Origin: Escherichia coli
Lineage (GTDB): Bacteria; Pseudomonadota; Gammaproteobacteria; Enterobacterales; Enterobacteriaceae
Reading direction: 5' to 3' (one strand)
Length of the DNA stretch: 64,000 nt
Assembly (NCBI RefSeq): GCF_013315695.1
Contig: NZ_CP054353.1
Shown here one piece after another: positions 3,429 to 64,000 of the stretch. A model generated the notes under the pieces. The model had not been told where the DNA came from. It searched no databases and worked only from the letters and a program-made list of their open reading frames with translations. A program made the position numbers and the translations under genes. Position 1 is the first letter of the stretch. The number at the start of each line of letters is the position of its first letter.

Positions 3429-4025
3429 TTACCCCTTAAACGTTAACCTCGGTCGAAATCTGACCGCTGGCTGAATTAATCCGGCTTCTTGTTGGGCTTC
3501 GATAACCGGACCAATATCTTTATAAGCAGCTGGCGCTTCTTCAATACGCCGTTCTTCGCGCAATGTGACGCATTGCCACGGCAACGTTGACTCTGCAGTC
3601 GCGCGTGAGCGCATGGCCTGCCGACGCTGGCTGCGTCCTGCTCCGTGACTGCAAGACCACAGCCACTCCGGGTTGCCGCAACCAACCGCAAGCCAGGAAT
3701 AATCACCCATGGAACCGGGGATTAACGCCAGATCGCCCGCGCGTGCCGGTGTTGTGGCCACCACAGCGCCAACGGGGACGCCATTGCCGGGATGAAAATC
3801 TGGCGTCGCGCACGTCTGGCGCACATAACCTGGGTGGTCTGGTAGCTTCACTTCTGCAAAATCAAGCAGTTGTGTTACTGCTTTTTCTTCCAGCGGCAGT
3901 TCGTCCGGCAGCAGTACGCGGGCACTGGCACCTGATGGACGAGATAATGAAACAATATTGTTGGCGCGGGAAAGTTGGATCCCTTTGCGCAGAAAGGCTT
4001 TATCAAGCCTTGAAAGATGATGCAT
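3429..4025 (-). CDS. RtcB-family (RNA 3'-phosphate ligase) C-terminal domain protein; probably a truncated remnant
   Basis: 198 aa containing the RtcB C-terminal hallmarks PGSMG, SHGAGR and EAPAAYKDI...RP...KG; the N-terminal metal-binding half of the family is missing. Confidence 0.55.
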   Translation of the reverse strand: MHHLSRLDKAFLRKGIQLSRANNIVSLSRPSGASARVLLPDELPLEEKAVTQLLDFAEVKLPDHPGYVRQTCATPDFHPGNGVPVGAVVATTPARAGDLALIPGSMGDYSWLAVGCGNPEWLWSCSHGAGRSQRRQAMRSRATAESTLPWQCVTLREERRIEEAPAAYKDIGPVIEAQQEAGLIQPAVRFRPRLTFKG

Positions 4026-4276
4026 AACGCTGTCCTGAAATATAGACGTTAAACAACCCCCTGTATTGCGAGGGTAATTTTGTCTTTCCGGTCAGCAGCC
4101 AGCAAAAGGGAAAGAAAACGCGCGTAGTGTATGTGGCGATAGCAAGTTTTACAAGTGGTAAATCTGGCTTATTGTTAAAGAGGAATTATCTTTTGTGAAG
4201 TCTTTTAAGGCCATGACTCATTCAATTTAACCGGACATAGATAATATATAACATAGGGTATATAAATTTATCATTG

Positions 4277-4405
4277 TATACTTGTCATAATTCAAGTTGC
4301 ATGTGCTGCATCGATGTTCGCTCACCCAGGTCACTTACTTATGTAAGTTTCTGGAAATTCATTATTTGTTCCCTTCCTGCAACTTGACTTATTTAGAGTA
4401 TATTC
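4277..4405. repeat. ERIC/IRU intergenic repeat, degenerate copy
   Basis: Contains ttcaagttgcatgtgctgc and cgctcacccaggtcacttacttatgtaag; about 80% identical to the copy at 49934-50062, which matches the ERIC1R/ERIC2 primer sequences. Confidence 0.8.
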
Positions 4406-4614
4406 ATGTATATGAATAATATTCTTGCAATAATAGCTTTAAAGTATTGCATGCGGATAACTGAGGTGAAATTCCTGTTTTAGGATTATTGTCACTTTAT
4501 TTTCCTGGTTAGACATATAGCTGACTGGTTTGTTTATTTGAATTATGATATTCATTAGTGCTACTGTTTTTTATAAAATAATTTTTGAATTGTTATTTTT
4601 TCACGGACGGCATT

Positions 4615-5520
4615 ATGCGAGGAAAAATACCTAAAACGGAACTGCTGGTGACTTTTGAGGTCGTCGCACGTCATGAAAGTTATACCAGAGCGGCAGAGGA
4701 GTTAGCGTTAACCCAAAGTGCAGTATTCAGACAAGTAAGTGCGCTGGAGGAATTTTTACATACTCCGTTATTTTCACACTCTAAAAAACGCATTTTTCTT
4801 AATGATGCAGGGAAGTATTACCTGGGGATAGTAAAAGAAACATTAAATAAGCTGGAACGCGATACCAATACCATTATGACCTGGCAGCCTACGGTTCAGG
4901 TTATTGAACTTGCCGTTAATCCTACTTTTAGTACCCACTGGTTAATCCCAAATTTACATGAATTCACAAAGTTACATCCCGATATTATTGTTAATATTCA
5001 TTCTTTAGCTAATAACGGCGACTTTCTTAATCGGGAGTACGATGCTGTCATTATGCGCGAAAATTTTTGCGCGCCCTGGGCGGAAGTAGAGTATCTCTTT
5101 GAAGAGGAGATTTTGCCGGTATGCAGCGGCAGTTTGCTTGCAATGTCCGATCAAAAACTGTCAGTGGCAGAACTGCTTACTGAGTTACCACTTCTGCATC
5201 AAAGCACCCGTATTACTGGCTGGGAAGAGTGGTTTGCTTTATCTGGCGTTAGCAGTCCGCTGGTCAATAACGGACCACGTTTCGATTTGCTTTCAATGCT
5301 GATTGCCGCCGTGCGCTCTAATCTCGGCGTGGCGCTGTTACCACGGTTCGCTATTCAACATGATTTGGATAGTGGCGATATGGTGATTCCCTGTGATGTG
5401 CCTATTCGTACCGGTAATCGTTTTATTATGACGTGGCAGGAAGAGAAGTCTGACTCACCGCACTTGCAGCAATTTCGTGAATGGTTGCTGGCGAAATCGG
5501 TCGTACCGCAGGAGATGTAA
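4615..5520 (+). CDS. LysR-family transcriptional regulator
   Basis: N-terminal HTH (ESYTRAAEELALTQSAVFRQVSALE) plus substrate-binding domain; ATG at 4615 preferred over the TTG-extended ORF at 4585. Confidence 0.85.
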   Translation: MRGKIPKTELLVTFEVVARHESYTRAAEELALTQSAVFRQVSALEEFLHTPLFSHSKKRIFLNDAGKYYLGIVKETLNKLERDTNTIMTWQPTVQVIELAVNPTFSTHWLIPNLHEFTKLHPDIIVNIHSLANNGDFLNREYDAVIMRENFCAPWAEVEYLFEEEILPVCSGSLLAMSDQKLSVAELLTELPLLHQSTRITGWEEWFALSGVSSPLVNNGPRFDLLSMLIAAVRSNLGVALLPRFAIQHDLDSGDMVIPCDVPIRTGNRFIMTWQEEKSDSPHLQQFREWLLAKSVVPQEM

Positions 5521-6165: not shown

Positions 6166-7818
6166 TTAATGTCCCGCAGGGCAACTGGCGCAGCGGTGTT
6201 TCTGCTCAAACTGACTAAAGAAATTATTGCCTTTATCATCTACCAGGATGAATGCGGGTAAATTTTCCACTTCCATCATCCACACCGCTTCCATACCCAG
6301 CTCCGGGTATTCCAGGCAACGCAGACTTTTGACATATTCTTGCGCCAGTAACGCAGCTGCACCGCCAATACTTCCCAGATTGAAGCCGCCATGTTTGTGA
6401 CAGGCATCGGTGACCTGCTGGCTGCGGTTACCTTTCGATAACATCACCAGACTGCCGCCAGCCGCCTGGAAGGTATCGACATAACCGTCCATTCGACCGC
6501 CCGTGGTTGGACCCAGTGAACCGCAGGCCATGTTCTCCGGTGTTTTCGCCGGGCCAGCGTAATAGACAATATGATGCTTCAGGTAATCCGGCATCGGTTC
6601 GCCGCTATCCAGCCGCGCTTTTATTTTGGCGTGGGCGATATCGCGCGCCACTACGATGGGACCACTTAACGACACGCGGGTGCCTACCGGTAATCTGGCG
6701 AGATCCTGCATCACGTCACGCAACGGACGATTTAGATCCAGCTGTACATGTTGCGCGTGATTTTCTTCCCGCAGTGAGGCTGGAATATATTGCCCCGGAT
6801 TGTGTTCGAGTTTTTCCAGCCAGATACCGTGCTTGTTAATTTTTGCTTTGATATTGCGATCCGCAGAACAGGAGAGCGTCATAGCTATCGGGCAAGAGCC
6901 ACCGTGACGCGGCAGACGAATGACGCGAATATCATGAGCGAAATATTTACCCCCAAATTGCGCACCAATACCAAATTGCTGACTGGCCTCGAGCAATACT
7001 TTTTCCAGCTCAATATCACGGAATGCTTGTCCTTGCTCGTTTCCGCTGGTGGGCAAATTGTCGTAATATTTCGTTGAGGCCAGCTTGGCAACTTTTAAGG
7101 TTTGATCGGCTGAAAGCCCTCCGACGACAAAGGCGATGTGGTAAGGCGGGCAGGCAGCGGTGCCCAGCGATTTCATTTTTTCGATTAAAAATGCGGTCAG
7201 TTTTTCTGGTTGCAATAGGGATTGGGTTTCCTGATAAAGCGCGGCTTTATTGGCAGAGCCGCCCCCTTTATTAATACAGAGAAAATGGTACTCATCACCA
7301 GCGACGGCGCTGATATCAATCTGCGCCGGGAGATTGGTTTGCGTATTGACTTCGGTAAACATATCCAGTGGCGCATTTTGTGAAAAGCGCAGATTATTTT
7401 CCTGAAAAGTGGTGTAAATGCCTTTGCTTAAGGCTTCAGCGTCGTTACCTCCGGTCCATATCTGTTGCCCTTTACTGGCAACAATAGTTGCGGTGCCGGT
7501 ATCCTGACAGTTGGGTAATACCCCTTTTGCTGAGACTTCAGCATTACGTAATAACTGCAACGCAACGTATTTATCATTACTACTGGCGTGCGGATCGTTA
7601 AGAATGCTGGCGACCTGTTGCAAATGAGCGGAACGTAAGAAAAAAGAGGCTTCATAAAATGCCTGCCGGGCAAGCAGCGTTAATGCTTCAGGAGCGATTT
7701 TTATCACTTCTTCGCCGTCTAATTCCGTTACTGTAATATGTTGATCGCTAATTAATGTATATTCTGTACCGTCTTTATTTTGTAGAAACGGTTCTTGCCA
7801 GATAAATGGTTTGGACAT
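6166..7818 (-). CDS. fumD: class I (Fe-S) fumarate hydratase family; probable mesaconase/fumarase FumD
   Basis: 550 aa, FumA/FumB-like length and N-terminus ([11 protein letters not shown]...); lies in the methylaspartate operon. Confidence 0.8.
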
Positions 7819-9684: not shown

Positions 9685-11051
9685 GCCTGAACTCCTTCTG
9701 GCGTCACCTGTTCAATATGGAAATCAAAACGCAGAGCGTCGTTGGCTTCAATCAGGTGATATATGGAAAATTCGTATACCGGCCCGCCCTGGATATCAGA
9801 AGGGGAGAACGGGAACGCCAGATTGCCTGCGGTAGCGATGCGGTTTTCATAGCCGTAGTGCAGCATGGTAGAGCGCACCAGCGAGCAAACGCTATTGGCA
9901 ATTTCCTGGGTCGGTGCAACTACATCAAGGACAATCCCCAGCTCATGCCCGGCAGTTTGCATCGGTTCATGGTCGCCCATCACCCCGTTTTTGCCGTACA
10001 GGTGGAAATTGATGCGAATGCTGTCATCGTCGAGCGACAGGTTACGCCAAACGCTGGTTTTGACTTCATCGATGATTTTATCGATCCCGGCGATCATGAT
10101 CGGGTCGCGCGTTCCTGCGATGGTCAGACAGCGGAAGCCCACCCGTCGCGCACCTTCCAGTTTCAGGGCATACGGCGTTTCTTCATGCTTAGAACCGCTG
10201 ACGTACACTTCGCCGTCATTGACCGCTTTAAATGTGCAGCCTTTCAGGTTCAACACGCCGCCAGGTCCAGGCAGGAAGTAGGGATCGGATTTCTCATACA
10301 GTGTGTGTGCAGCCGCTGACGTTTCGGTAAATTTACGCTTCGGATTAAATGTCTTCAGCGTAAAGCCGTTGTCATCAATGATGCCCATCGCACAGTCAGA
10401 GCCTGAGCCGGGCGTTGCGGCGATTGCCGCGCATTCAAGGATTTTCCCACAATGCAGCGCCAGACCTTCATCAAAGCCTTGCATGATCGGGAGCGCAGCA
10501 AAGCAGGCCGGGTCGTAAGCGCGCCCGCCCAGCACCACTTGCGCGCCTTCTTTCAGCGCCCGCTGGAAGGGTTCGATGCCCATTTGCGCGACGATATACG
10601 TACTTTCGTCAATCGCGTCGTGGGTTAACGGCGGGACAAAATCCAGCGCCGTGATTTTGCCGTTATCCAGCGCCTGGTGGACGATGGCTTTGTCAACGTC
10701 TGCCGGGATCAACGCCATCGAGAACGAGAGGTGCTCTTCCTGGGCAATCTCATGAATTATTTCTCGGCACCACTCCAGGTGTGGTGCGGCACCAGAACCG
10801 CCAGCTGTTCCGATCACCACCGGTATATTATTTTGCACGCCTGCGGTGATCATATAGCGCAGATCGCGCTTGACCCCTGCGCGATCGGTAAACGGTTTGC
10901 CTGCCCCGAGGTAGTGGGGGCCTGGATCGGAAGAGCCTGCATCAACGGCGATCAGATCGGGCGATTCTGCCATCGCTTTGCGGAAGCTCTCTTCCGGGAA
11001 TCCATACCCGAGGATTGCCGTTGGCGATAAGACTTTAAAAGAACGAGCCAT
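9681..11051 (-). CDS. DUF1446 (AtuA-like) family protein, function unknown
   Basis: 456 aa; family assignment is from memory of the N-terminal region and is unverified. Confidence 0.6.
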   Translation of the reverse strand: MARSFKVLSPTAILGYGFPEESFRKAMAESPDLIAVDAGSSDPGPHYLGAGKPFTDRAGVKRDLRYMITAGVQNNIPVVIGTAGGSGAAPHLEWCREIIHEIAQEEHLSFSMALIPADVDKAIVHQALDNGKITALDFVPPLTHDAIDESTYIVAQMGIEPFQRALKEGAQVVLGGRAYDPACFAALPIMQGFDEGLALHCGKILECAAIAATPGSGSDCAMGIIDDNGFTLKTFNPKRKFTETSAAAHTLYEKSDPYFLPGPGGVLNLKGCTFKAVNDGEVYVSGSKHEETPYALKLEGARRVGFRCLTIAGTRDPIMIAGIDKIIDEVKTSVWRNLSLDDDSIRINFHLYGKNGVMGDHEPMQTAGHELGIVLDVVAPTQEIANSVCSLVRSTMLHYGYENRIATAGNLAFPFSPSDIQGGPVYEFSIYHLIEANDALRFDFHIEQVTPEGVQA

Positions 11052-13759: not shown

Positions 13760-15148
13760 TTATAGGGTTAAGCATTGAATACTGGTGCGCGCGGCGGCCA
13801 GCGGATCGACTCTGGCGACGTTTGCCAGCAGTGGTAATAGCCCCCGGGAATCGCGGTAATATTCAAATTCGGTCGGTAAGAGAATGCGTTTACCGTCGTC
13901 GTTTAACTCGCGGTATTTCAACCAGTGATGCATATCGAACTGACTGGCACGCGAGAGCCATCCGCCGGATCCGACGACTTTACGCACGGTTGTCAGGTCA
14001 CGTCCCATCTGTAAATCGACATTGCCGACGCAGGTGCAGACCTCTTTTTTGGTGCCCGCATGTCTTTCGGTGGCATAACCCACACACAGTCCGGCCAGGA
14101 CTGTATCGAAATATTTTTCTTCTGCATTCGCGGGTAAGTAGTCGGGATGAGCGACTAGATGACGGAGGTAATGATAAAAAGCGTCCAGCTGTGCGGGTTG
14201 CTGAGCAAAATTCACATTGACTAACTCTTTCGCACTTTCACCAACCACCATTGCCGAGACGCGCATTCCCAGATCGCCTTCCACCGTCCGTTTCACGAAG
14301 GGTTCCGGTACGCCGTGTAAAACGGTGTCGGGCGAGAGCGTGTTGGCACAGGCGGAATAGACATCGGTGGTTGCGCCACCCATGTCGATCAGTATGAACT
14401 CTTTCCAGCTGTGATCGACATTACTGATTGCCTTAACCAGTTCAAAGACTGTCCACGGTGTCGGCATTGGTTCTTCGCCTGTTTTATCAACAACGACATC
14501 CAGCCCTTTCCCTTTAACGATGCGTTTAAGGAATATGTCGCAGATAGCCTGGCGTGCAGCTAAAGGGTTCGGATGGTCAAGATCGGGCAGAACGTTGTCG
14601 ACGATGGTCAGGTCTTTATGCCCTAGGATCTCCTGCACCTCGTCCTGAATATCCCGGTTTCCGGCATAAATAATGGCGCAGTCGAGTTTGGATTCTGCCA
14701 GCACACGGGCGTTATTCAGGCCGTAGCTTTCTTCTCCGCCGTCGGTGCCGCCGGTGAACAAGAGAATATCGGGCTGCGTTTCTTCCAGTGCCTGGATATC
14801 ACGGCGGTTCAGCTTGTAGGAGTAATATTGCGCAATTTTAGCCCCCGCAGAGTGAGCGGTTACTTTCGCGGTTTCCAGGGTGATAGAAGGCACCAATCCC
14901 ATTGCGGCAACCGCCAGCCCACCTTTGGCAGAGGAGGAATACTTCAATGCAACCTCACCGTTGTTAAACAGGGGGAGGGTATTATCTACGTTTAACACCA
15001 GGTTCAGGCTGGAGAAAAACCCCTTCGCCAGATGATGGGTGGTGGTTGGGGTCAGTACGTGGTTAACCAACGTTAACGCGTCCCCCTCCCGGGCGAAGAG
15101 GGCTGCTTTGGTCCACGTCGATCCAATATCGACAGAGACGATTTGCAT
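13760..15148 (-). CDS. glmL: glutamate mutase L component (MutL/GlmL)
   Basis: 462 aa, the size of clostridial GlmL; sits between the S and E subunit genes. Confidence 0.8.
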   Translation of the reverse strand: MQIVSVDIGSTWTKAALFAREGDALTLVNHVLTPTTTHHLAKGFFSSLNLVLNVDNTLPLFNNGEVALKYSSSAKGGLAVAAMGLVPSITLETAKVTAHSAGAKIAQYYSYKLNRRDIQALEETQPDILLFTGGTDGGEESYGLNNARVLAESKLDCAIIYAGNRDIQDEVQEILGHKDLTIVDNVLPDLDHPNPLAARQAICDIFLKRIVKGKGLDVVVDKTGEEPMPTPWTVFELVKAISNVDHSWKEFILIDMGGATTDVYSACANTLSPDTVLHGVPEPFVKRTVEGDLGMRVSAMVVGESAKELVNVNFAQQPAQLDAFYHYLRHLVAHPDYLPANAEEKYFDTVLAGLCVGYATERHAGTKKEVCTCVGNVDLQMGRDLTTVRKVVGSGGWLSRASQFDMHHWLKYRELNDDGKRILLPTEFEYYRDSRGLLPLLANVARVDPLAAARTSIQCLTL

Positions 15149-15597
15149 CAGATTGCCTCTTCAAGAATACGAGTATCAACGTCATGACGTTGGTTGATAT
15201 CGTGTGCCATCAGCTGACAAACATCTTCTAAGTCATGACTTGGGGCAAAGACGCGATCAAATCCCATCTCTTTGAATTTGGTTTCCACGTCAGCGAAGTC
15301 ATGTTTTCCGACCACCAGGTTACCGCCCACATAGAGCAGGATGTCCCCCAGTCCACGCTCGATGCAGCGTTCGCGCATGCCCAGACAGTCGATATCGCCA
15401 TGCCCATAGATAGAGGAGACGACAATCGCGTCAGCGCCAGTTTCAATGGCCGCATCAATATATTCGTCCTGGCTGACCATTACGCCCAGATTAATGACTC
15501 TGAAGCCATGGTTGCTAAAAACGCGGTCCAGAACTTTATTGCCTACTGCATGGCAGTCCGCGCCAATAACGCCAATCACAAGTGTTGCTTTCTTCAT
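15148..15597 (-). CDS. glmS: glutamate mutase sigma (S) subunit, cobalamin-binding
   Basis: B12-binding domain; start taken at MKKATLV (15597), preceded by AAGGA, rather than the longer ORF from 15660. Confidence 0.85.
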
Positions 15598-16143
15598 GGG
15601 TAATCCTTTGTAAGACAGAGAGTAAAATAAGTTACACACGTCGTATTTATGGCCGTTCATAACGGCACAGGTTTAATATCACAGGAGTGTCTTTATCTGA
15701 CCGTAATGTTGCAATTGATCTATTTTCAAAATGTCTTTCGGGAAATGATTGTTTAAAGTATGTTGTTAAATTCTCATGTTAATTCAGTGTGTTATGTCAA
15801 CTAATGTCATGAATGTTAAATTTTTAAAATTAACTTGATTTGGTGTATTGAGGTATTTGTGATCTACTTCTAATTTGCATTTTAGTGATATGGGTTTAGC
15901 CATGAGTAAATGCATTTCATAAAATTTAAGTCGAATTTCACTGCAATTCATCTCTGCTTAATGTAAAAATAATGTTGAAAATAACAAATGGTTAATGATT
16001 CATGCGAATTATGACCTTAGTTAGCTCTTTTGATTTTTCGTAAAAAAGAGAGGTACATGAAGGTGCTACCAGTATGAGTAACGTTAATCAAAGGTTTTAT
16101 TACGTCTGGCAATAACGCAGGCCATTTTCGCGACTGGGTGGAT

Positions 16144-16566
16144 TTAATCAGTATAATCCTCATACAATAGTTCACGATTAACTGAACCGTTAACGGGGAT
16201 TTGGTGTTGAAATTTAGAAATGGCGGAGTCAATTAATGAAGACAATATCGAAAAAATGACAGTGTCAGAATTAATTTCAATTAATCCTTCTCGTTGTTGA
16301 CCAAAAAAGATATTTATCTTGATTTCATTTGTACTACGGCAATCAATATGTAGTAATTTTTGATCGCTGAGATTTTCTGTTTCATAAATGTTTTTGGCGA
16401 TAGTCGGATGTATTGATGCCAGACATCTGCTCAGATAAGCCAGATCCTTTAGGGAACACCCCGCTGAGTAGAGGATGTCAGAGAATTTTTGTGTGTTAAC
16501 TGTTGTCTCTGAAGCGTATGTTGCATTGACAGGAAGGGTGTTGAAAGAGATTTGAGATGGGAGCAT
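16144..16566 (-). CDS. hypothetical protein, no recognisable domain (AT-rich)
   Basis: 140 aa ORF, Ser/Thr/Asn-rich N-terminus; same strand and 80 bp downstream of the 314-aa ORF. Confidence 0.55.
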   Translation of the reverse strand: MLPSQISFNTLPVNATYASETTVNTQKFSDILYSAGCSLKDLAYLSRCLASIHPTIAKNIYETENLSDQKLLHIDCRSTNEIKINIFFGQQREGLIEINSDTVIFSILSSLIDSAISKFQHQIPVNGSVNRELLYEDYTD

Positions 16567-16646
16567 TATTTAAATCTTTCCGTGAGTAATAAAAATTAAT
16601 CCCCGGGCATTGTTTAGCAATATTTGCCACAGGTAATATATAAAAA

Positions 16647-17591
16647 TTAAAGTATTTGATTGGCATCGGTTAACTGATCAATAACCAGTGCCAGATTGGT
16701 AAACATTTTGAAAAAGCGATACTGGCTCGGAATATCTCTTTCAAAGACGAAACATTCAATGTCATTGTTTGAAAAATAAAGGACTAGTGTTGCTGATTCG
16801 TCAGGAAAAATATGGAAATATATCTGGTTACCAGAAGGAGGATAGTCCAGAAGAAGGGTATCTTTGCCCGTCACATACCTGTTGTGGTCGTGGATGCTGC
16901 GCTCACACTTCATCAGAGGTGTCATGATACTCATGTATTCATCTGATGTTAATATATTAAAATCACCATCCATTTTAAAGAAACGATAAAGTAACAGTAC
17001 ATCCTCTTGCGTAACCGGTTCGTTTGTTTTTAGAGGGAAATAAGTGGGAACCAGAAGATGAGGTTCTAATCTATTTTGTTGAGCGCTATAACTAAATTTG
17101 AACATAAATTCCGGATCGCTCATCAATTGAGCGACATAATTATGCCTGGCTTCAAAAATTTTAACTTTTATCAGGTTAAATAAGTCTGTTTCGTCATCCT
17201 GTATTAAAAGACATTGGCCATAGCAGCCAGGCTTTTTTTCATTATAAGCAGAAACGGTTATTCTGTCAGGAGTGTCAACGTTATATCCAAAAGCCAGATA
17301 GTGACCGTCCTCATCGAGATTTGTTTCCAGGTTATTTAAATTTATCACATGAAGTGTTTGCAATGCTGATTCAATGAGCTGTTGACTCTCTGAGGTAAAT
17401 GTTTCGCGCTGCGTTGTATAAAGTGTATCGATTCCAACGACTATCCGATATGGGTCAAGGATGGCGGCAATCATCTTTATTACCTGCACAGCCACGGGTG
17501 ATGTCATTGATTCGTTATCTGTTTTTAGAGGATCATTAGATGGCCAACCTGAGAAGCGATTGACAGCCGAACCGATATTATCAGGACTCAT
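16647..17591 (-). CDS. hypothetical protein, no recognisable domain (AT-rich)
   Basis: 314 aa ORF, acidic and Phe/Tyr-rich; GAGG RBS about 9 nt upstream of the ATG. Confidence 0.6.
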   Translation of the reverse strand: MSPDNIGSAVNRFSGWPSNDPLKTDNESMTSPVAVQVIKMIAAILDPYRIVVGIDTLYTTQRETFTSESQQLIESALQTLHVINLNNLETNLDEDGHYLAFGYNVDTPDRITVSAYNEKKPGCYGQCLLIQDDETDLFNLIKVKIFEARHNYVAQLMSDPEFMFKFSYSAQQNRLEPHLLVPTYFPLKTNEPVTQEDVLLLYRFFKMDGDFNILTSDEYMSIMTPLMKCERSIHDHNRYVTGKDTLLLDYPPSGNQIYFHIFPDESATLVLYFSNNDIECFVFERDIPSQYRFFKMFTNLALVIDQLTDANQIL

Positions 17592-17949
17592 AGCAGCAAC
17601 CTCATTGTAATCAAGCGAGGCGCTGAGCGTACTCGGCTATAGAAAAACTAACTTGCAAAAATCGCTCATTTTTCATTTATCAGGCGAAAGTGGTCTCTGT
17701 TCACTCAGAAACAATCACTCCCGCTAAGTCATACCTGTTTCATCGATACACTTAAGTGATTATTACTAATGAAACAATAACATAACGGGCTTACGGCCGG
17801 TGCTCATAAAGGCAACAATCAATTAACTTTGATAAAAATATGTTATGTAAAATAGCAACAAATTGGCTAATCTAATCAATTGGTATTATAAAAAGTGGAT
17901 AAGGCGGTTCTGTTAAATAAAACACTGGTTTTTTATCTATACCTTTTCA

Positions 17950-18396
17950 TTGTAATAATTGTGTTGCATAAATATTTCACAATAAATTAACAATAAAATC
18001 ACCAATGATCTATGGTTTATACATAATTAACATATTTGGTTGGTTTTGATATAAATCAATTTTTAATTCTTGAAAAAAATCTGCAAAACACGATAAATTG
18101 TCGTAGATCAAATTGGTGAGATCGTGACAATTTCGCTATAAATTGATCACTGTCGAAAAATGCAAATTTGCTCAATAAAAACCTGTTTATTGTAAGGATT
18201 TTGCGGCGTAATATAATTACGGGATCAATTTGGTTTATTCATTAACATATTTGTAACTTTTTTATCATTGTCTTTTCCTCTTTTGATGAAATGGCAACGA
18301 TAGAGGCGAGCAAATAATTTTGTATTGGGGCATGCGTGTGACCCTTTCTAACGGGGTTCACTCTCGGAGTCTTCATGCGATGAGCAAGGAGTCATG
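17950..18396 (+). promoter_or_regulatory. cydAB promoter/regulatory region
   Basis: Long AT-rich leader upstream of cydA with a repeated ggtttat-N-attaacatatttg motif (18014-18047 and 18229-18258) and TTGAT-like half sites; exact sites not resolved. Confidence 0.45.
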
Positions 18397-19965
18397 ATGT
18401 TAGATATAGTCGAACTGTCGCGCTTACAGTTTGCCTTGACCGCGATGTACCACTTCCTTTTTGTGCCACTGACGCTCGGTATGGCGTTCCTGCTGGCCAT
18501 TATGGAAACGGTCTACGTCCTTTCCGGCAAACAGATTTATAAAGATATGACCAAGTTCTGGGGCAAGTTGTTTGGTATCAACTTCGCTCTGGGTGTGGCT
18601 ACCGGTCTGACCATGGAGTTCCAGTTCGGGACTAACTGGTCTTACTATTCCCACTATGTAGGGGATATCTTCGGTGCGCCGCTGGCAATCGAAGGTCTAA
18701 TGGCCTTCTTCCTCGAATCCACCTTTGTAGGTCTGTTCTTCTTCGGTTGGGATCGTCTGGGTAAAGTTCAGCATATGTGTGTCACCTGGCTGGTGGCGCT
18801 CGGTTCAAACCTGTCCGCACTGTGGATTCTGGTTGCGAACGGCTGGATGCAAAACCCAATCGCGTCCGATTTCAACTTTGAAACTATGCGTATGGAGATG
18901 GTGAGCTTCTCCGAGCTGGTGCTTAACCCGGTTGCTCAGGTGAAATTCGTTCACACTGTAGCGTCTGGTTATGTGACTGGCGCGATGTTCATCCTCGGTA
19001 TCAGCGCATGGTATATGCTGAAAGGTCGTGACTTCGCCTTCGCTAAACGCTCCTTTGCTATCGCTGCCAGCTTCGGTATGGCTGCCGTTCTGTCTGTTAT
19101 TGTTCTGGGTGATGAATCTGGTTACGAAATGGGCGACGTGCAGAAAACCAAACTGGCTGCTATTGAAGCCGAGTGGGAAACGCAACCTGCGCCTGCTGCC
19201 TTTACTCTGTTCGGCATTCCTGATCAGGAAGAGGAGACGAACAAATTTGCGATCCAGATCCCTTACGCGCTGGGCATCATTGCAACGCGTTCCGTGGATA
19301 CTCCAGTTATCGGCCTGAAAGAACTGATGGTGCAGCATGAAGAACGCATTCGTAACGGGATGAAGGCGTACTCTCTGCTCGAGCAACTGCGTTCTGGTTC
19401 TACCGACCAGGCGGTTCGTGACCAGTTCAATAGCATGAAGAAAGACCTCGGTTACGGTCTGCTGCTGAAACGCTATACGCCAAACGTGGCTGATGCGACT
19501 GAAGCGCAGATTCAACAGGCAACCAAAGACTCCATTCCGCGTGTAGCGCCGCTGTACTTCGCGTTCCGTATTATGGTGGCGTGTGGCTTCCTGCTGCTGG
19601 CAATCATCGCGCTCTCTTTCTGGAGTGTCATCCGCAACCGCATTGGCGAGAAAAAATGGCTGCTGCGCGCCGCGCTGTACGGTATTCCGCTGCCGTGGAT
19701 TGCTGTAGAAGCGGGCTGGTTCGTGGCTGAATATGGCCGCCAACCGTGGGCTATCGGTGAAGTGCTGCCGACAGCTGTGGCGAACTCGTCACTGACCGCA
19801 GGCGATCTCATCTTCTCAATGGTGCTGATTTGCGGCCTGTATACCCTGTTCCTGGTGGCAGAATTGTTCTTAATGTTCAAGTTTGCACGCCTCGGCCCAA
19901 GCAGCCTGAAAACCGGTCGCTATCACTTTGAGCAGTCTTCCACGACTACTCAGCCGGCACGCTAA
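18397..19965 (+). CDS. cydA: cytochrome bd-I ubiquinol oxidase subunit I
   Basis: 522 aa from [28 protein letters not shown]. Confidence 0.97.
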
Positions 19966-25966: not shown

Positions 25967-26512
<546 letters not shown>

Positions 26513-26521
26513 GAGAATTGC

Positions 26522-27313
26522 ATGAGCAGTAACTTCAGACATCAACTATTGAGTCTGTCGTTACTGGTTGGTATAGCGGCCCCCTGGGCCGCTTTTGCTC
26601 AGGCACCAATCAGTAGTGTCGGCTCAGGCTCGGTCGAAGACCGCGTCACTCAACTTGAGCGTATTTCTAATGCTCACAGCCAGCTTTTAACCCAACTCCA
26701 GCAACAACTCTCTGATAATCAATCCGATATTGATTCCCTGCGTGGTCAGATTCAGGAAAATCAGTATCAACTGAATCAGGTCGTGGAGCGGCAAAAGCAG
26801 ATCCTGTTGCAGATCGACAGCCTCAGCAGCGGTGGTGCAGCGGCGCAATCAACCAGCGGTGATCAAAGCGGTGCGGCGGCATCAACGACGCCGACAGCTG
26901 ATGCTGGTACTGCGAATGCTGGCGCGCCGGTGAAAAGCGGTGATGCAAACACGGATTACAATGCAGCTATTGCGCTGGTGCAGGATAAATCCCGCCAGGA
27001 TGACGCAATGGTGGCATTTCAGAATTTCATCAAAAATTACCCTGATTCAACTTTCCTGCCAAACGCCAATTATTGGCTGGGTCAGTTAAACTACAACAAG
27101 GGTAAAAAAGATGATGCGGCGTACTATTTTGCTTCGGTAGTGAAAAACTATCCGAAGTCACCAAAGGCTGCAGATGCGATGTTTAAAGTCGGCGTCATCA
27201 TGCAGGACAAAGGTGACACCGCAAAAGCGAAAGCCGTATACCAGCAGGTTATCAGTAAATACCCTGGTACTGATGGTGCTAAACAGGCGCAAAAACGTCT
27301 GAACGCGATGTAA
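26522..27313 (+). CDS. cpoB: cell division coordinator CpoB (YbgF)
   Basis: 263 aa with signal peptide, coiled coil and C-terminal TPR. Confidence 0.95.
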   Translation: MSSNFRHQLLSLSLLVGIAAPWAAFAQAPISSVGSGSVEDRVTQLERISNAHSQLLTQLQQQLSDNQSDIDSLRGQIQENQYQLNQVVERQKQILLQIDSLSSGGAAAQSTSGDQSGAAASTTPTADAGTANAGAPVKSGDANTDYNAAIALVQDKSRQDDAMVAFQNFIKNYPDSTFLPNANYWLGQLNYNKGKKDDAAYYFASVVKNYPKSPKAADAMFKVGVIMQDKGDTAKAKAVYQQVISKYPGTDGAKQAQKRLNAM

Positions 27314-27477: not shown

Positions 27478-27553
27478 GGGTCGTTAGCTCAGTTGGTAGA
27501 GCAGTTGACTTTTAATCAATTGGTCGCAGGTTCGAATCCTGCACGACCCACCA
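27478..27553 (+). tRNA. lysT: tRNA-Lys (UUU)
   Basis: 76 nt gggtcgttagctcagttggtagagcagttgacttttaatcaattggtcgcaggttcgaatcctgcacgacccacca. Confidence 0.97.
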
Positions 27554-27688
27554 ATCGCTAAGGTGGAAGCGGTAGTAAAACGTGAAGGATAACGTTGCGT
27601 CAGCAACGGCCCGAAGGGCGAGACGAAGTCGAGTCATCCTGCACGACCCACCACTAACATAGTTAGTTGTAGTATCCAGCGTAGTATT

Positions 27689-27764
27689 GGGTGATTAGCT
27701 CAGCTGGGAGAGCACCTCCCTTACAAGGAGGGGGTCGGCGGTTCGATCCCGTCATCACCCACCA
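27689..27764 (+). tRNA. valT: tRNA-Val (UAC)
   Basis: 76 nt gggtgattagctcagctgggagagcacctcccttacaaggagggggtcggcggttcgatcccgtcatcacccacca. Confidence 0.97.
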
Positions 27765-27766
27765 CC

Positions 27767-27842
27767 GGGTCGTTAGCTCAGTTGGTAGAGCAGTTGACTT
27801 TTAATCAATTGGTCGCAGGTTCGAATCCTGCACGACCCACCA
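27767..27842 (+). tRNA. lysW: tRNA-Lys (UUU)
   Basis: Identical 76-nt Lys tRNA sequence. Confidence 0.97.
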
Positions 27843-27893
27843 CTAATGACGGTGGGTTCGGTGGAAGTAGTTTGTAGTATCCAGCGCAGTATC

Positions 27894-27969
27894 GGGTGAT
27901 TAGCTCAGCTGGGAGAGCACCTCCCTTACAAGGAGGGGGTCGGCGGTTCGATCCCGTCATCACCCACCA
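27894..27969 (+). tRNA. valZ: tRNA-Val (UAC)
   Basis: Identical 76-nt Val tRNA sequence. Confidence 0.97.
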
Positions 27970-27972
27970 CTC

Positions 27973-28048
27973 GGGTCGTTAGCTCAGTTGGTAGAGCAGT
28001 TGACTTTTAATCAATTGGTCGCAGGTTCGAATCCTGCACGACCCACCA
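27973..28048 (+). tRNA. lysY: tRNA-Lys (UUU)
   Basis: Identical 76-nt Lys tRNA sequence. Confidence 0.97.
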
Positions 28049-28096
28049 ATTTTAAAGATTGGTTCCGAGTAGAAATCTTTCAGGTAACACCCGTAT

Positions 28097-28172
28097 GGGT
28101 CGTTAGCTCAGTTGGTAGAGCAGTTGACTTTTAATCAATTGGTCGCAGGTTCGAATCCTGCACGACCCACCA
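28097..28172 (+). tRNA. lysZ: tRNA-Lys (UUU)
   Basis: Identical 76-nt Lys tRNA sequence. Confidence 0.97.
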
Positions 28173-28205
28173 TCCTGAATGATTAAAGCAGCATAATCCC
28201 GCAAG

Positions 28206-28281
28206 GGGTCGTTAGCTCAGTTGGTAGAGCAGTTGACTTTTAATCAATTGGTCGCAGGTTCGAATCCTGCACGACCCACCA
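28206..28281 (+). tRNA. lysQ: tRNA-Lys (UUU)
   Basis: Identical 76-nt Lys tRNA sequence. Confidence 0.97.
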
Positions 28282-47370: not shown

Positions 47371-48423
47371 ATGAAAAAAATACCCTGCGTGATGATGCGA
47401 GGTGGAACCTCGAGGGGCGCGTTCCTGTTAGCGGAACATCTACCCGAAGATCAAACGCAGCGCGATAAAATATTGATGGCAATTATGGGTTCCGGTAACG
47501 ATCTGGAAATTGACGGTATTGGCGGCGGTAATCCGCTGACCAGTAAAGTCGCCATTATTAGCCGCTCCAGCGATCCGCGTGCAGATGTCGATTATCTGTT
47601 TGCTCAAGTTATCGTCCATGAGCAACGTGTCGATACCACGCCTAACTGCGGCAATATGCTGTCTGGCGTTGGGGCATTCGCCATTGAAAATGGTTTGATT
47701 GCAGCGACTTCGCCAGTTACCCGCGTACGTATCCGCAACGTCAATACGGGTACGTTCATCGAAGCTGATGTGCAAACGCCAAATGGTGTTGTCGAGTACG
47801 AGGGTAGCGCAAGAATTGACGGCGTACCGGGTACTGCCGCACCGGTTGCGCTCACTTTCCTGAATGCCGCCGGAACCAAAACCGGAAAAGTCTTCCCGAC
47901 AGATAATCAGATTGATTATTTTGACGATGTCCCGGTGACCTGTATCGATATGGCGATGCCAATTGTCATTATTCCTGCTGAATATCTGGGAAAAACAGGC
48001 TATGAATTACCGGCAGAGCTGGATGCCGACAAAGCATTATTAGCCCGCATTGAATCTATCCGTCTACAAGCGGGTAAAGCAATGGGCTTAGGCGATGTCA
48101 GTAATATGGTTATCCCTAAACCTGTACTTATTTCTCCAGCGCAGAAAGGCGGGGCAATTAATGTGCGTTATTTTATGCCGCATTCTTGCCATCGCGCTTT
48201 GGCGATAACCGGTGCTATTGCCATTTCCAGTAGTTGTGCATTGGAAGGCACCGTCACCCGACAAATCGTCCCTTCTGTAGGATACGGCAATATCAATATT
48301 GAACACCCCAGTGGTGCGCTCGACGTTCATTTAAGTAATGAAGGTCAGGATGCCACGACGTTACGCGCATCTGTTATTCGGACGACCAGAAAAATATTTT
48401 CCGGTGAAGTTTATCTTCCCTGA
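47371..48423 (+). CDS. ybhH: PrpF/AcnD-accessory family isomerase-like protein YbhH
   Basis: 350 aa, divergent from ybhD. Confidence 0.85.
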   Translation: MKKIPCVMMRGGTSRGAFLLAEHLPEDQTQRDKILMAIMGSGNDLEIDGIGGGNPLTSKVAIISRSSDPRADVDYLFAQVIVHEQRVDTTPNCGNMLSGVGAFAIENGLIAATSPVTRVRIRNVNTGTFIEADVQTPNGVVEYEGSARIDGVPGTAAPVALTFLNAAGTKTGKVFPTDNQIDYFDDVPVTCIDMAMPIVIIPAEYLGKTGYELPAELDADKALLARIESIRLQAGKAMGLGDVSNMVIPKPVLISPAQKGGAINVRYFMPHSCHRALAITGAIAISSSCALEGTVTRQIVPSVGYGNINIEHPSGALDVHLSNEGQDATTLRASVIRTTRKIFSGEVYLP

Positions 48424-48498
48424 AAAATTTTGTTGTCGTGATAATGACAATCAATAAAGGAATTCTGTATGAGTCATACAGAAAGAACAGGATATTAA

Positions 48499-49932
48499 AT
48501 GAATAAGAAATCGTTATGGAAGCTAATTCTGATATTAGCAATCCCATGTATTATTGGCTTTATGCCAGCTCCAGCAGGATTAAGCGAACTGGCGTGGGTG
48601 CTTTTTGGTATTTACCTGGCGGCCATTGTGGGGCTGGTTATCAAGCCTTTCCCGGAACCTGTCGTACTGTTAATTGCCGTTGCTGCCTCTATGGTGGTGG
48701 TCGGTAACTTATCCGACGGTGCGTTTAAGACCACCGCCGTATTAAGCGGTTACTCTTCCGGTACCACCTGGCTGGTGTTTTCTGCGTTTACTTTAAGCGC
48801 CGCGTTTGTAACCACAGGCTTAGGTAAACGTATTGCCTATCTGCTGATTGGTAAAATTGGTAGCACTACCCTGGGTCTGGGTTACGTTACGGTATTTCTC
48901 GATCTGGTACTGGCTCCGGCAACACCGTCTAACACCGCGCGTGCGGGCGGCATTGTGTTACCGATCATCAACAGCGTGGCGGTGGCTTTGGGGTCAGAAC
49001 CGGAAAAAAGTCCGCGTCGTGTCGGACATTACCTGATGATGTCCATTTACATGGTCACCAAAACCACCAGCTATATGTTCTTTACCGCAATGGCGGGGAA
49101 CATTCTGGCGCTGAAAATGATCAACGACATTCTGCACCTGCAAATTAGCTGGGGTGGATGGGCGCTAGCCGCCGGATTGCCTGGCATCATTATGCTGCTG
49201 GTCACCCCGCTGGTGATTTACACCATGTATCCACCAGAAATTAAGAAGGTGGATAACAAAACCATCGCTAAAGCGGGCCTTGCCGAACTGGGACCGATGA
49301 AAATCCGCGAAAAAATGCTGCTCGGTGTCTTTGTGCTGGCGCTGCTGGGCTGGATTTTCAGTAAGTCTCTGGGGGTTGATGAATCCACCGTGGCAATCGT
49401 TGTTATGGCAACTATGCTGCTGCTGGGTATCGTTACCTGGGAAGACGTGGTTAAAAATAAAGGCGGCTGGAATACCTTAATCTGGTACGGCGGTATTATC
49501 GGCTTAAGCTCCTTATTATCGAAAGTTAAATTCTTCGAATGGTTAGCTGAAGTCTTTAAAAATAACCTGGCATTTGATGGTCACGGTAACGTTGCTTTCT
49601 TCGTTATTATTTTCCTCAGCATCATCGTGCGTTATTTCTTCGCTTCTGGTAGTGCCTATATCGTTGCCATGTTACCGGTATTTGCCATGCTGGCGAACGT
49701 CTCCGGCGCACCGTTAATGTTAACCGCGCTGGCACTGTTGTTCTCTAACTCCTATGGCGGCATGGTTACTCACTATGGCGGCGCGGCAGGTCCGGTCATC
49801 TTTGGCGTGGGTTACAACGATATTAAATCCTGGTGGTTGGTCGGTGCGGTACTGACGATATTAACCTTCCTGGTGCATATCACCCTCGGCGTGTGGTGGT
49901 GGAATATGCTGATCGGCTGGAACATGCTGTAA
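48499..49932 (+). CDS. ybhI: DASS-family anion permease YbhI
   Basis: 477 aa polytopic membrane protein. Confidence 0.9.
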   Translation: MNKKSLWKLILILAIPCIIGFMPAPAGLSELAWVLFGIYLAAIVGLVIKPFPEPVVLLIAVAASMVVVGNLSDGAFKTTAVLSGYSSGTTWLVFSAFTLSAAFVTTGLGKRIAYLLIGKIGSTTLGLGYVTVFLDLVLAPATPSNTARAGGIVLPIINSVAVALGSEPEKSPRRVGHYLMMSIYMVTKTTSYMFFTAMAGNILALKMINDILHLQISWGGWALAAGLPGIIMLLVTPLVIYTMYPPEIKKVDNKTIAKAGLAELGPMKIREKMLLGVFVLALLGWIFSKSLGVDESTVAIVVMATMLLLGIVTWEDVVKNKGGWNTLIWYGGIIGLSSLLSKVKFFEWLAEVFKNNLAFDGHGNVAFFVIIFLSIIVRYFFASGSAYIVAMLPVFAMLANVSGAPLMLTALALLFSNSYGGMVTHYGGAAGPVIFGVGYNDIKSWWLVGAVLTILTFLVHITLGVWWWNMLIGWNML

Positions 49933-49933
49933 A

Positions 49934-50062
49934 TATACTCGTCATACTTCAAGTTGCATGTGCTGCGTCTGCGTTCGCTCACCCCAGTCACTTACTTATG
50001 TAAGCTCCTGGGGATTCACTCGCTTGTCGCCTTCCTGCAACTCGAATTATTTAGAGTATATC
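49934..50062. repeat. ERIC/IRU intergenic repeat
   Basis: Contains atgtaagctcctggggattcac (ERIC1R) and cgctcaccccagtcacttactt (reverse complement of ERIC2). Confidence 0.9.
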
Positions 50063-50111
50063 CATTTATTATCTTTCTGCGCACTTCACGGTTCGCAGAT
50101 ATCTGGAGCAT

Positions 50112-52376
50112 TTGATGATCAAGTTATCTGAAAAAGGCGTGTTTCTCGCCAGTAATAACGAAATAATTGCCGAAGAACATTTCACCGGCGAAATTAAAAA
50201 AGAAGAAGCCAAAAAAGGCACTATTGCCTGGTCTATTCTCTCTTCTCATAATACGTCCGGAAATATGGATAAACTTAAAATTAAGTTTGATTCATTAGCC
50301 TCTCACGATATTACCTTTGTTGGTATTGTACAGACCGCTAAAGCGTCCGGTATGGAACGTTTCCCGCTGCCGTATGTGCTGACCAACTGCCATAACTCAC
50401 TCTGCGCCGTCGGCGGCACTATTAACGGTGATGACCATGTTTTTGGTTTATCGGCGGCCCAGCGTTATGGTGGTATTTTTGTGCCTCCGCACATTGCGGT
50501 CATCCATCAATATATGCGTGAGATGATGGCAGGCGGCGGCAAAATGATCCTCGGGTCAGACAGCCATACCCGTTACGGTGCATTAGGGACAATGGCAGTC
50601 GGTGAGGGCGGCGGTGAGTTGGTAAAACAGCTGCTTAATGACACCTGGGATATCGACTATCCGGGCGTGGTTGCGGTGCATCTGACCGGAAAACCAGCGC
50701 CGTATGTGGGGCCACAGGATGTGGCGCTGGCTATCATCGGTGCCGTGTTCAAAAACGGCTACGTCAAAAACAAAGTGATGGAATTCGTAGGTCCCGGTGT
50801 TGCTGCGCTCTCTACCGATTTCCGTAACAGCGTTGACGTGATGACCACTGAAACGACCTGTTTAAGTTCTGTCTGGCAAACCGATGAAGAAGTCCATAAC
50901 TGGCTGGCGCTGCACGGTCGCGGCCAGGATTACTGCCAACTTAACCCTCAACCAATGGCGTACTACGATGGCTGCATCAGCGTTGATTTAAGCGCCATCA
51001 AACCAATGATTGCGCTGCCATTCCACCCGAGCAACGTGTATGAAATCGACACGCTGAACCAGAACCTGACCGACATTCTGCGTGAGATTGAAATTGAGTC
51101 CGAACGCGTGGCGCACGGTAAAGCCAAATTCTCGCTGCTGGATAAAGTGGAAAATGGTCGCCTGAAAGTGCAGCAGGGGATTATCGCGGGCTGTTCTGGC
51201 GGTAACTACGAAAACGTCATCGCGGCGGCGAATGTACTGCGCGGTCAATCCTGTGGCAATGACACCTTCTCGTTAGCGGTTTACCCGTCATCACAGCCCG
51301 TGTTTATGGATCTCGCCAAAAAAGGTGTGGTAGCAGATTTGATTGGCGCAGGCGCAATCATCAGAACCGCGTTCTGCGGCCCATGCTTTGGCGCGGGCGA
51401 TACGCCAATCAACAACGGTTTGAGTATTCGCCACACCACGCGAAACTTCCCGAATCGCGAAGGCTCTAAGCCAGCCAATGGGCAGATGTCAGCGGTGGCG
51501 TTGATGGACGCTCGTTCTATCGCTGCGACTGCGGCAAACGGTGGCTATTTAACCTCTGCCAGCGAGCTGGATTGCTGGGACAACGTGCCGGAGTACGCCT
51601 TCGATGTAACGCCGTATAAAAACCGTGTTTATCAGGGCTTTGTGAAAGGGGCGACCCAGCAACCGCTGATTTACGGACCGAACATTAAAGACTGGCCGGA
51701 ATTGGGTGCGCTGACTGACAATATCGTCCTCAAAGTGTGCTCGAAGATTCTCGACGAAGTGACCACCACCGACGAACTGATTCCTTCCGGTGAAACCTCT
51801 TCTTATCGTTCAAATCCGATTGGTCTGGCGGAGTTTACCCTGTCACGCCGCGATCCAGGTTATGTTGGCAGAAGTAAAGCGACTGCTGAGCTGGAAAATC
51901 AGCGTCTGGCGGGAAATGTCAGCGAGCTGACAGAGGTGTTTGCGCGCATTAAGCAGATTGCTGGTCAGGAGCATATTGATCCGCTGCAAACTGAAATTGG
52001 CAGCATGGTCTATGCGGTGAAACCAGGCGATGGTTCTGCGCGTGAGCAGGCGGCGAGCTGTCAGCGTGTGATTGGCGGTCTGGCGAATATTGCCGAGGAG
52101 TACGCGACTAAACGCTACCGTTCTAACGTCATCAACTGGGGGATGTTACCGCTGCAAATGGCGGAAGCACCGAACTTTGACGTAGGTGATTACATTTACA
52201 TCCCTGGCATTAAAGCAGCGCTGGATAATCCGGGTACGACGTTTAAAGGTTATGTGATCCATGAAGATGCGCCGGTAACAGAGATTACGCTCTATATGGA
52301 AAGTCTGACTGCTGAAGAGCGCGAGATTATCAAGGCGGGTAGTTTGATTAACTTCAATAAAAACCGTCAGATGTAA
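50112..52376 (+). CDS. ybhJ: aconitase-family protein YbhJ
   Basis: 754 aa (753 if the second ATG is used); aconitase-family call is from recalled K-12 synteny and length, not a motif I can point to. Confidence 0.9.
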
Positions 52377-63169: not shown

Positions 63170-63330
63170 GGATGGTAAAAATCTCATTTACACGCTAGTA
63201 TCGGCTTAACCACTAAACACTCTAGCCTCTGCACCTGGGTCAACTGATACGGTGCTTTGGCCGTGACAATGCTCGTAAAGATTGCCACCAGGGCGAAGGA
63301 AGAAATGACTTCGCCTCCCGTATCTGGAAA
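63170..63330 (+). promoter_or_regulatory. moaA 5' leader; candidate molybdenum-cofactor (Moco) riboswitch
   Basis: Long structured leader ending in gcctccc ... ggaaagg before the ATG; position matches the recalled Moco RNA motif; boundaries approximate. Confidence 0.5.
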
Positions 63331-63337
63331 GGTGTAC

Positions 63338-64000
63338 ATGGCTTCACAACTGACTGATGCATTTGCGCGTAAGTTTTACTACTTGCGCCTGTCGATTACC
63401 GATGTGTGTAACTTTCGTTGCACCTACTGCCTGCCGGATGGCTACAAACCGAGCGGCGTCACCAATAAAGGCTTTCTTACCGTCGATGAAATTCGCCGGG
63501 TTACGCGCGCCTTCGCCAGTCTGGGCACCGAAAAAGTCCGTCTGACGGGCGGTGAGCCGTCTTTACGCCGCGACTTTACCGATATCATCGCCGCTGTGCG
63601 AGAAAACGACGCTATCCGCCAGATTGCGGTCACCACCAATGGTTACCGTCTGGAACGCGATGTGGCGAACTGGCGCGATGCTGGACTTACTGGCATCAAC
63701 GTCAGCGTTGATAGCCTTGACGCTCGCCAGTTTCATGCCATTACCGGGCAGGATAAATTCAACCAGGTCATGGCAGGAATCGATGCTGCATTTGAGGCCG
63801 GTTTTGAGAAGGTCAAAGTCAATACCGTGCTGATGCGTGATGTTAATCATCATCAGCTCGACACCTTTCTGAACTGGATCCAGCATCGTCCCATCCAGCT
63901 GCGTTTCATCGAACTGATGGAGACGGGCGAGGGCAGCGAGCTCTTCCGTAAGCATCACATCTCTGGTCAGGTTCTGCGTGACGAGTTACTGCGTCGCGGC
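63338..64000 (+). CDS. moaA: GTP 3',8-cyclase MoaA, N-terminal part (3' end outside window)
   Basis: [31 protein letters not shown] radical-SAM motif; open to window end, so absent from the ORF track. Confidence 0.95.

Follow-up and report, generated by a model that had tools for sequence, protein, structure and literature searches.

The 64,000-nucleotide window analyzed here (Escherichia coli, contig NZ_CP054353.1) contains, at positions 16144-17591 next to cydA, two adjacent open reading frames (ORFs) of 314 and 140 amino acids, hereafter A and B, which had been singled out in an original prediction made from the DNA sequence without database searches. Our interpretation is that A and B form an old, chromosomally fixed, weakly constrained and dispensable pair of ORFans restricted to Escherichia, a reading to which we assign a probability of about 0.6. 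About one fifth of the complete E. coli genomes, together with E. albertii strains, carry these genes that no database can name, and selection has preserved them as genes since before the split between the two species.

Coding status and orphan character of A and B

The two ORFs lie on the same strand, 80 bp apart, with the coordinates and lengths first proposed, and are indeed more AT-rich than their flanks. In 400-bp windows, GC content is 0.34-0.375 over A and B versus 0.51-0.57 in glmS/L/E and cydAB, and it is still lower (0.26-0.33) in the intergenic DNA adjoining the pair. GC content at third codon positions (GC3) is 0.36 in A and 0.33 in B, compared with 0.62 in cydA and 0.52 in glmS, and the values for the first, second and third codon positions of A (0.49, 0.31 and 0.36) follow a typical coding pattern. 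Calculated from base composition, the per-start chance of so long an open frame amounts to 1.2e-9 in A and 1.2e-4 in B.

The ratio of non-synonymous to synonymous substitution rates (dN/dS) was compared across seven E. coli alleles and E. albertii, using a Fisher test for dN/dS <1. For A, dN/dS was 0.34-0.46 wherever dS was at least 0.12 (Fisher P from 2e-3 to 4e-9), and the closest allele pairs gave values of 0.19-0.60, some of them not significant. For B, dN/dS within E. coli was 0.18-0.48 in 18 of the 20 allele pairs (P from 0.02 to 1e-4) and 0.60-0.70, not significant, in the two remaining pairs, both of which involve GF4; the comparison with E. albertii gave 0.51 (P = 0.004). The reading frames themselves are also preserved. 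Between A and its E. albertii orthologue, 219 of 945 nucleotides differ (23%, for 64% amino acid identity) without a single indel or stop codon, and a neutral simulation in which the observed substitution spectrum was applied at random (20,000 trials) produced a mean of 8 stops and left the frame open with a frequency of 1e-4. B aligns gap-free with its E. albertii counterpart over 134 codons, and the seven sampled E. coli alleles of A and B are all full length, B being 140 amino acids long and indel-free in each. At the level of sequence comparison, these data show that A and B are genuine protein-coding genes under weak but significant purifying selection.

This selection is of a different order from that acting on the adjacent genes. 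In the same genomes, dN/dS is 0.03-0.28 for glmS and 0-0.006 for cydA. The highest dS values within E. coli are 0.17-0.19 in A and 0.27 in B, versus about 0.07-0.10 in glmS and 0.02-0.04 in cydA. As judged from these rates, A and B are shown to evolve several times faster than their neighbours and under much weaker constraint. The raised dS could result from low codon bias, from more frequent mutation in silent AT-rich DNA, or from recombination that has preserved older alleles. We judged expression level from GC3 and dS: a GC3 of 0.33-0.36 combined with a dS raised 2- to 6-fold over glmS and cydA fits a weakly expressed gene.

The larger protein, A, had been described as acidic and aromatic-rich, which its isoelectric point (pI) of 4.59 and its content of 11.8% aromatic residues bear out. 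B is a 15.7-kDa, Ser/Ile/Leu-rich protein with a pI of 4.92 and 12% serine, and polar N-termini rich in Ser, Thr and Asn are visible in both sequences. Maximum Kyte-Doolittle hydrophobicity over 19 residues reaches 1.45 in A and 1.37 in B, values that we read, in agreement with the original prediction, as the absence of a transmembrane segment from either protein. No catalytic, DNA-binding or cofactor motif was found in the sequence of A or B.

No known domain had been recognized in either protein, and database searches agree. A and B had no match by sequence or profile in NCBIfam, PADLOC or the PDB, with no PADLOC family reported for either at E values up to 1; nothing below E = 0.19 was returned from Pfam, where no CesT/SycE-type chaperone family matched A or B, and PHROGs gave a single non-significant match, to B (E = 0.076). 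Searched exhaustively with phmmer against 1.84 billion representative proteins, A retrieved 14 sequences, all of them short fragments of A itself (74-100% identity), and word-indexed searches of 5.8 billion clusters with A and B recovered solely E. coli, Shigella dysenteriae (fragments) and E. albertii; the exhaustive scan covered A alone, and the orphan status of B is that given by the word-indexed and profile searches. A scan of one genome per GTDB species located A in E. albertii, in Escherichia sp. MOD1-EC7003 and in two metagenome-assembled genomes (MAGs). The two MAGs (L012 and L013), labelled Citrobacter sp. and Collinsella sp., carry A with 98% identity to E. coli, a level that points to contamination, and they are most simply explained as E. 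coli contigs binned into the wrong genome. The searches thus show A and B to be without detectable homologue outside Escherichia/Shigella. The pair was also correctly regarded as undescribed, both members being 'hypothetical protein' in RefSeq and without family match, and no searchable paper mentions their likely locus tags or WP accessions.

A phage or plasmid origin was considered and rejected. No relative of A or B was found in phages or among IMG/VR viral contigs by tblastn and viral-contig scans, and the three 'plasmid' matches obtained, in records of 0.73 to 4.9 Mb, are apparently chromosomal sequence under a wrong label.

Structure prediction, proposed as a check for both proteins, was carried out with AlphaFold2 on shallow alignments and gave a mean predicted local distance difference test (pLDDT) score of 45.6 for A and 41.6 for B, models too poor to support the assignment of a fold. 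With low confidence, they suggest that A and B are alpha/beta proteins: the model of B consists of helices, three strands and a long helix, and that of A of two such units. A Foldseek search of AFDB50 returned solely the protein itself, and fold searches otherwise gave noise. The possibilities that B is paralogous to one domain of A, or that A arose by internal duplication, were rejected as unsupported, with hhalign E values of 0.08-0.18 and Smith-Waterman scores at z <1 relative to shuffled sequences; the two proteins contain short look-alike motifs, LMKCERSIH in A and LSRCLASIH in B.

Distribution, age and decay of the pair

The pair is present in 1135 of 5426 complete E. coli genomes, at a median of one place per genome, and stands beside cydA in every row examined. 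Carriers include strains of serotypes O157:H7, O145:H28 and O127:H6. K-12-type genomes (3176) have mngRAB beside cydA in place of A and B, and about 700 genomes of the ST131 type display a third arrangement with a divergent, 82%-identical mngB. The order cydA-A-B-glmS is also found in some E. albertii strains (L019-L021), and dS between the window and E. albertii amounts to 0.52 in A, 0.59 in B and 0.70 in glmS. This shared order, together with comparable dS, indicates that the block has diverged as a whole since the species separated, so that any foreign origin predates the E. coli/E. albertii split. One candidate for a more divergent relative (L003, GCA_002230845.1) proved to be an indel-ridden E. 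coli assembly and was discarded.

By these comparisons the module is old and vertically inherited and is not a recent insertion. The proposal that it is a horizontally acquired cassette consequently holds in part: recent acquisition is not supported, given the single site, the lack of mobile relatives and the synteny in E. albertii, and a GC content of 36% points to a foreign origin, though an ancient one.

Whether the pair co-occurs across genomes had been put forward as a check, with a divided outcome: A and B are linked in the 1135 E. coli genomes and are not retained together in E. albertii. In L019-L021 (with an A-B spacer of 72 bp in L019), codon 36 of B is an in-frame stop. The glm cluster that contains glmS is missing from a second E. 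albertii haplotype (L002 and L014); there, B is reduced to a 31-amino-acid trace, its region in this haplotype showing about 14-20 gapped columns per 100, and A is intact (314 amino acids) in L002 and frameshifted (209 + 108 amino acids) in the type strain, NBRC 107761. Since the two A alleles of E. albertii share 98.4% identity, the loss of the glm cluster is recent, and since A outlives B in this species, A and B do not appear to be interdependent. In L002, a 258-amino-acid ORF at 9907-10683, between A and sucD, replaces the glm cluster; it has no Pfam match, looks outer-membrane-like and has at its N-terminus a hydrophobic stretch, possibly a signal peptide. Just the C-terminal 114-amino-acid part of this ORF is still open in the type strain (L014).

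In Escherichia sp. MOD1-EC7003 (L015), a cryptic species of the genus, residues 1-93 of B are deleted, and ERIC/IRU-like elements occur at 6349-6469, inside A, and at about 7086-7210, just after A, while glmS and glmL are intact. The element inside A matches the ERIC core consensus with 1 mismatch in 22 nt. This genome clearly illustrates how a small repeat element can inactivate genes. Occasional insertion sequences were also noted in the region within E. coli, namely IS1 in two strains and IS4 in one; B is 131 amino acids long in one of the IS1 strains (CP029747/2016C-3878). A and B are dispensable and have been repeatedly inactivated or replaced. Frameshifts in close relatives, named beforehand as an observation that would speak against a functional module, were thus encountered outside E. 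coli and not within it. With one pair seen intact, nonsense-mutated, frameshifted, ERIC-disrupted and replaced, this locus provides a clean and datable example of orphan-gene persistence and decay at a single core-genome junction.

Origin and possible roles of A and B

In the account that we favour, A and B would have entered an ancestor of Escherichia as AT-rich foreign DNA, and they are long-standing residents of the cydA-proximal edge of the hypervariable sucD-cydA interval. H-NS may keep them at low expression, as suggested by their GC content of 36% and by the nearby cydA control region, which is presumably bound by H-NS. Their products could be small, acidic alpha/beta proteins, soluble and cytoplasmic, that work through contact with a binding partner and not by catalysis, with a benefit that would be small, condition-dependent and easily lost. 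The biochemical part of this account is a guess.

Two precedents were compared with this account. ORFans, or taxonomically restricted genes, have reportedly been described in E. coli by Daubin and Ochman (2004, Genome Research); like them, A and B are confined to a narrow clade, AT-rich, annotated as 'hypothetical', present in some strains only and fast-evolving, with a dN/dS that is raised yet below 1. Unlike them, A is long, and the pair is old and fixed at a core-genome junction and does not belong to a prophage or an island; the phage origin proposed for ORFans is not supported for A and B since no phage relative was found. Xenogeneic DNA is likewise reported to be silenced by H-NS (Navarre 2006; Lucchini 2006), and the cydAB promoter has reportedly been studied in relation to H-NS (Govantes 2000). 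A and B resemble such silenced foreign DNA in having 35-37% GC versus 51-57% in their flanks, and in adjoining an AT-rich regulatory region that we take to be H-NS-bound in K-12, whose haplotype is without A and B.

Several observations weigh against this account. Intactness in the 1135 E. coli genomes was checked at the sequence level for seven alleles, and for 40 spread matches on annotation rows alone. A dN/dS of 0.2-0.45 sustained over a long time shows real constraint and hence the existence of a specific function. The idea of partner-binding proteins draws solely on missing motifs, acidity and low-confidence secondary structure. In addition, the equal genome counts of the pair and the glm cluster, the synteny in E. 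albertii and the frameshifted A of the glm-less type strain are equally compatible with a role linked to glm.

A stronger form of the functional argument, which we regard as unlikely, would have A and B constitute an ancient Escherichia-specific two-protein system with folds not seen before and a real, condition-specific role, expressed when H-NS silencing is lifted. Such a system might tune anaerobic glutamate fermentation or cytochrome bd-linked respiration in the gut; alternatively, it might provide a new inhibitor/immunity function in which A is able to act alone.

The neighbourhood could suggest a more specific role, in which A and B would be Escherichia-specific accessory or regulatory parts of the methylaspartate-pathway (glm) operon and modulate the expression or activity of this pathway. 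The corresponding glutamate-fermentation cluster of O157:H7, to which the fumarase gene near the pair also belongs as the gene for the mesaconase FumD, was characterized by Kronen and Berg 2015 (PMC4682846). A and B are adjacent to this cluster, co-directional with it and immediately upstream of glmS; the glm cluster is likewise found in 1135 E. coli genomes, a number equal to that of the pair (the membership of the two sets was not compared), and the stretch that runs from the start of glmS across B and A to the start of cydA is covered in 1134 genomes. The A-B-glm order is kept in E. albertii with comparable dS, and it is in the glm-less E. albertii haplotype that B is largely deleted and, in the type strain, A is frameshifted. 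On the other hand, the cluster is also carried by Klebsiella, Citrobacter, Salmonella, Yersinia and Morganella (PMC4682846), five other genera in whose clusters A and B are absent, and A and B are not among the pathway genes described for it (PMC4682846). Their composition differs from that of glm (36% versus 52% GC), B lies 546 bp from glmS across an AT-rich gap, both proteins are acidic and devoid of DNA-binding or cofactor motifs, and the pair is dispensable where the cluster persists, as in MOD1-EC7003, in which glmS and glmL remain intact and A and B are destroyed. Taken together, these observations make a role linked to the glm operon rather improbable.

To an equally small degree we credit the possibility that A and B are functionless relics that survive since too little time has passed for their erosion. 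Repeated loss and pseudogenization in related lineages, a dN/dS that is high relative to the neighbours and the likely silencing of AT-rich DNA would all be expected of relics. This hypothesis is difficult to reconcile with the dN/dS of the two genes, which is significantly below 1 in almost every comparison that contains sufficient substitutions, with the intactness of all seven sampled E. coli alleles, and with the fact that A is open and indel-free after 219 substitutions (P = 1e-4), whereas the adjacent B region of the same E. albertii haplotype has accumulated its many gapped columns.

The original prediction had raised the possibility of a toxin-immunity, effector-chaperone or defence pair. 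A toxin accompanied by an immunity protein or antitoxin, or a novel anti-phage defence system of two genes, would account for a module of two small, adjacent, same-strand, AT-rich genes of no annotated function at the edge of a variable region, and the orphan status of the pair leaves room for a new system. Unlike known modules of this kind, A and B have no family match, including zero matches in PADLOC, and no mobility: they occupy a single fixed locus in one genus, descend vertically and are absent from phages and plasmids. Nor is the location that of a defence island, as had been suggested for examination: the neighbours are the metabolic and respiratory genes glmS/L/E, MAL, fumD and cydABX, with no defence or mobile gene nearby, and the pair is always beside cydA in the rows examined. 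The pairing is also not obligate, A being intact where B is stopped (L019-L021) or mostly deleted (L002, L014), and both proteins are acidic with a catalytic motif in neither. This part of the prediction is therefore not supported, a toxin or defence pair now being very unlikely, and the practical value of the analysis is mostly negative: the locus contains no defence island or toxin cassette that would merit a phage-challenge screen.

Least credible of all is a type III secretion effector (A) with its chaperone (B), for which one may invoke the size, pI and predicted helix-strand-helix layout of B (class I chaperones are likewise small, about 15 kDa, and acidic, though these traits are nonspecific), polar N-termini that resemble secretion signals, and carriers such as O157:H7, O145:H28, O127:H6 and E. 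albertii, presumably lineages positive for the locus of enterocyte effacement, since Pfam gives no CesT/SycE-type match (the model of B being too poor for a fold comparison with CesT/SycE/SicP-type chaperones), the distribution appears phylogenetic and not tied to pathotype, with gut, extended-spectrum β-lactamase, avian, porcine and wastewater carriers not labelled attaching-effacing (as judged by labels), and the supposed chaperone is the first of the two to decay.

Genomic setting and other features of the window

The RefSeq annotation was read from the chromosome of E. coli MS 21-1 (NZ_CP146670.1), which is 100% identical over the region. The gene order runs from sucD through genes for a TPR protein, an RtcB fragment, a LysR pseudogene, cobO, a class I fumarase, a symporter, a DUF4387 protein, AtuA and methylaspartate ammonia-lyase to glmE, glmL, glmS, B and A, followed by the divergent cydABX-ybgE and by tol-pal. 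The neighbouring genes are glmS (15148-15597, starting at 15597) and cydA (18394-19965, starting at 18394/18397), and the placement of the pair between the glutamate-operon promoter region and the cydA leader, at the edge of a variable segment, was confirmed. The features of the locus are listed below.

Features of the A/B locus, with coordinates in the window
Feature	Coordinates	Strand	Size and composition	Annotation or remark
ORF A	16647-17591	-	314 amino acids, ATG start	RefSeq WP_001571128.1, 'hypothetical protein'
ORF B	16144-16566	-	140 amino acids, ATG start	RefSeq WP_000937861.1, 'hypothetical protein'
A-B spacer	16567-16646	-	80 bp	No site inside by terminator scan
B-glmS spacer	15598-16143	-	546 bp, ~30-34% GC	Presumed promoter region of the methylaspartate-pathway operon
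A upstream block	17592-17673	-	~82 nt	Presumed A promoter/5′ leader; GAGG Shine-Dalgarno 8 nt before ATG
A/cydA shared intergenic region	17674-18393	.	AT-rich, GC 0.26-0.34	cydA divergently transcribed

Because no terminator-like site was found in the spacer between them, A and B are probably co-transcribed. When E. coli alleles, E. albertii and MOD1-EC7003 are aligned five ways, no part of the distal cydA-A intergenic region is better conserved than the block upstream of A: identity to E. albertii is 89% over the 100 nt at 17568-17667 and 66-84% in the DNA farther out. The segment 17592-17673 contained no consensus sigma-70 site. More generally, counts of consensus sigma-70 promoters and terminators in 15000-19000 were not above those of shuffled sequence, and Rfam gave no match there at E values up to 1. 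On the other side of the pair, the segment 15600-16287, which comprises the B-glmS spacer and the 3′ third of B, shares 92% identity with Escherichia sp. MOD1-EC7003.

Along the cydA-A intergenic region, sliding-window identity with E. albertii is 93-100% in the cydA-proximal part and 66-84% in the distal part. An alignment of the window with K-12 and E. albertii confines the homology between the window and K-12 to the 400 bp or so that precede the start codon of cydA, from about position 18000. Since homology with K-12 stops at this distance from cydA, the cydA control region is shown to exist in at least two versions with unrelated distal halves. Even the roughly 400 bp that can be aligned with K-12 are visibly diverged; the K-12 region compared with 17592-18393 of the window is L010 8613-9458.

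The far end of the accessory segment, at 3429-5520, looks decayed; it holds a 198-amino-acid ORF annotated as RtcB and a LysR-family pseudogene with an internal stop. Elsewhere in the window, Rfam matches comprise the CpoB/ybgF thermometer (26413-26551) and a Moco riboswitch (63206-63350), both at their expected core-genome positions, and a seven-gene tRNA Lys/Val array with an RtT match occupies 27478-28278. Finally, at 48342-50841, an IS903B transposase gene (about 49327-50295) splits the gene of a DASS-family anion symporter (ybhI) into two fragments annotated as pseudogenes in RefSeq.

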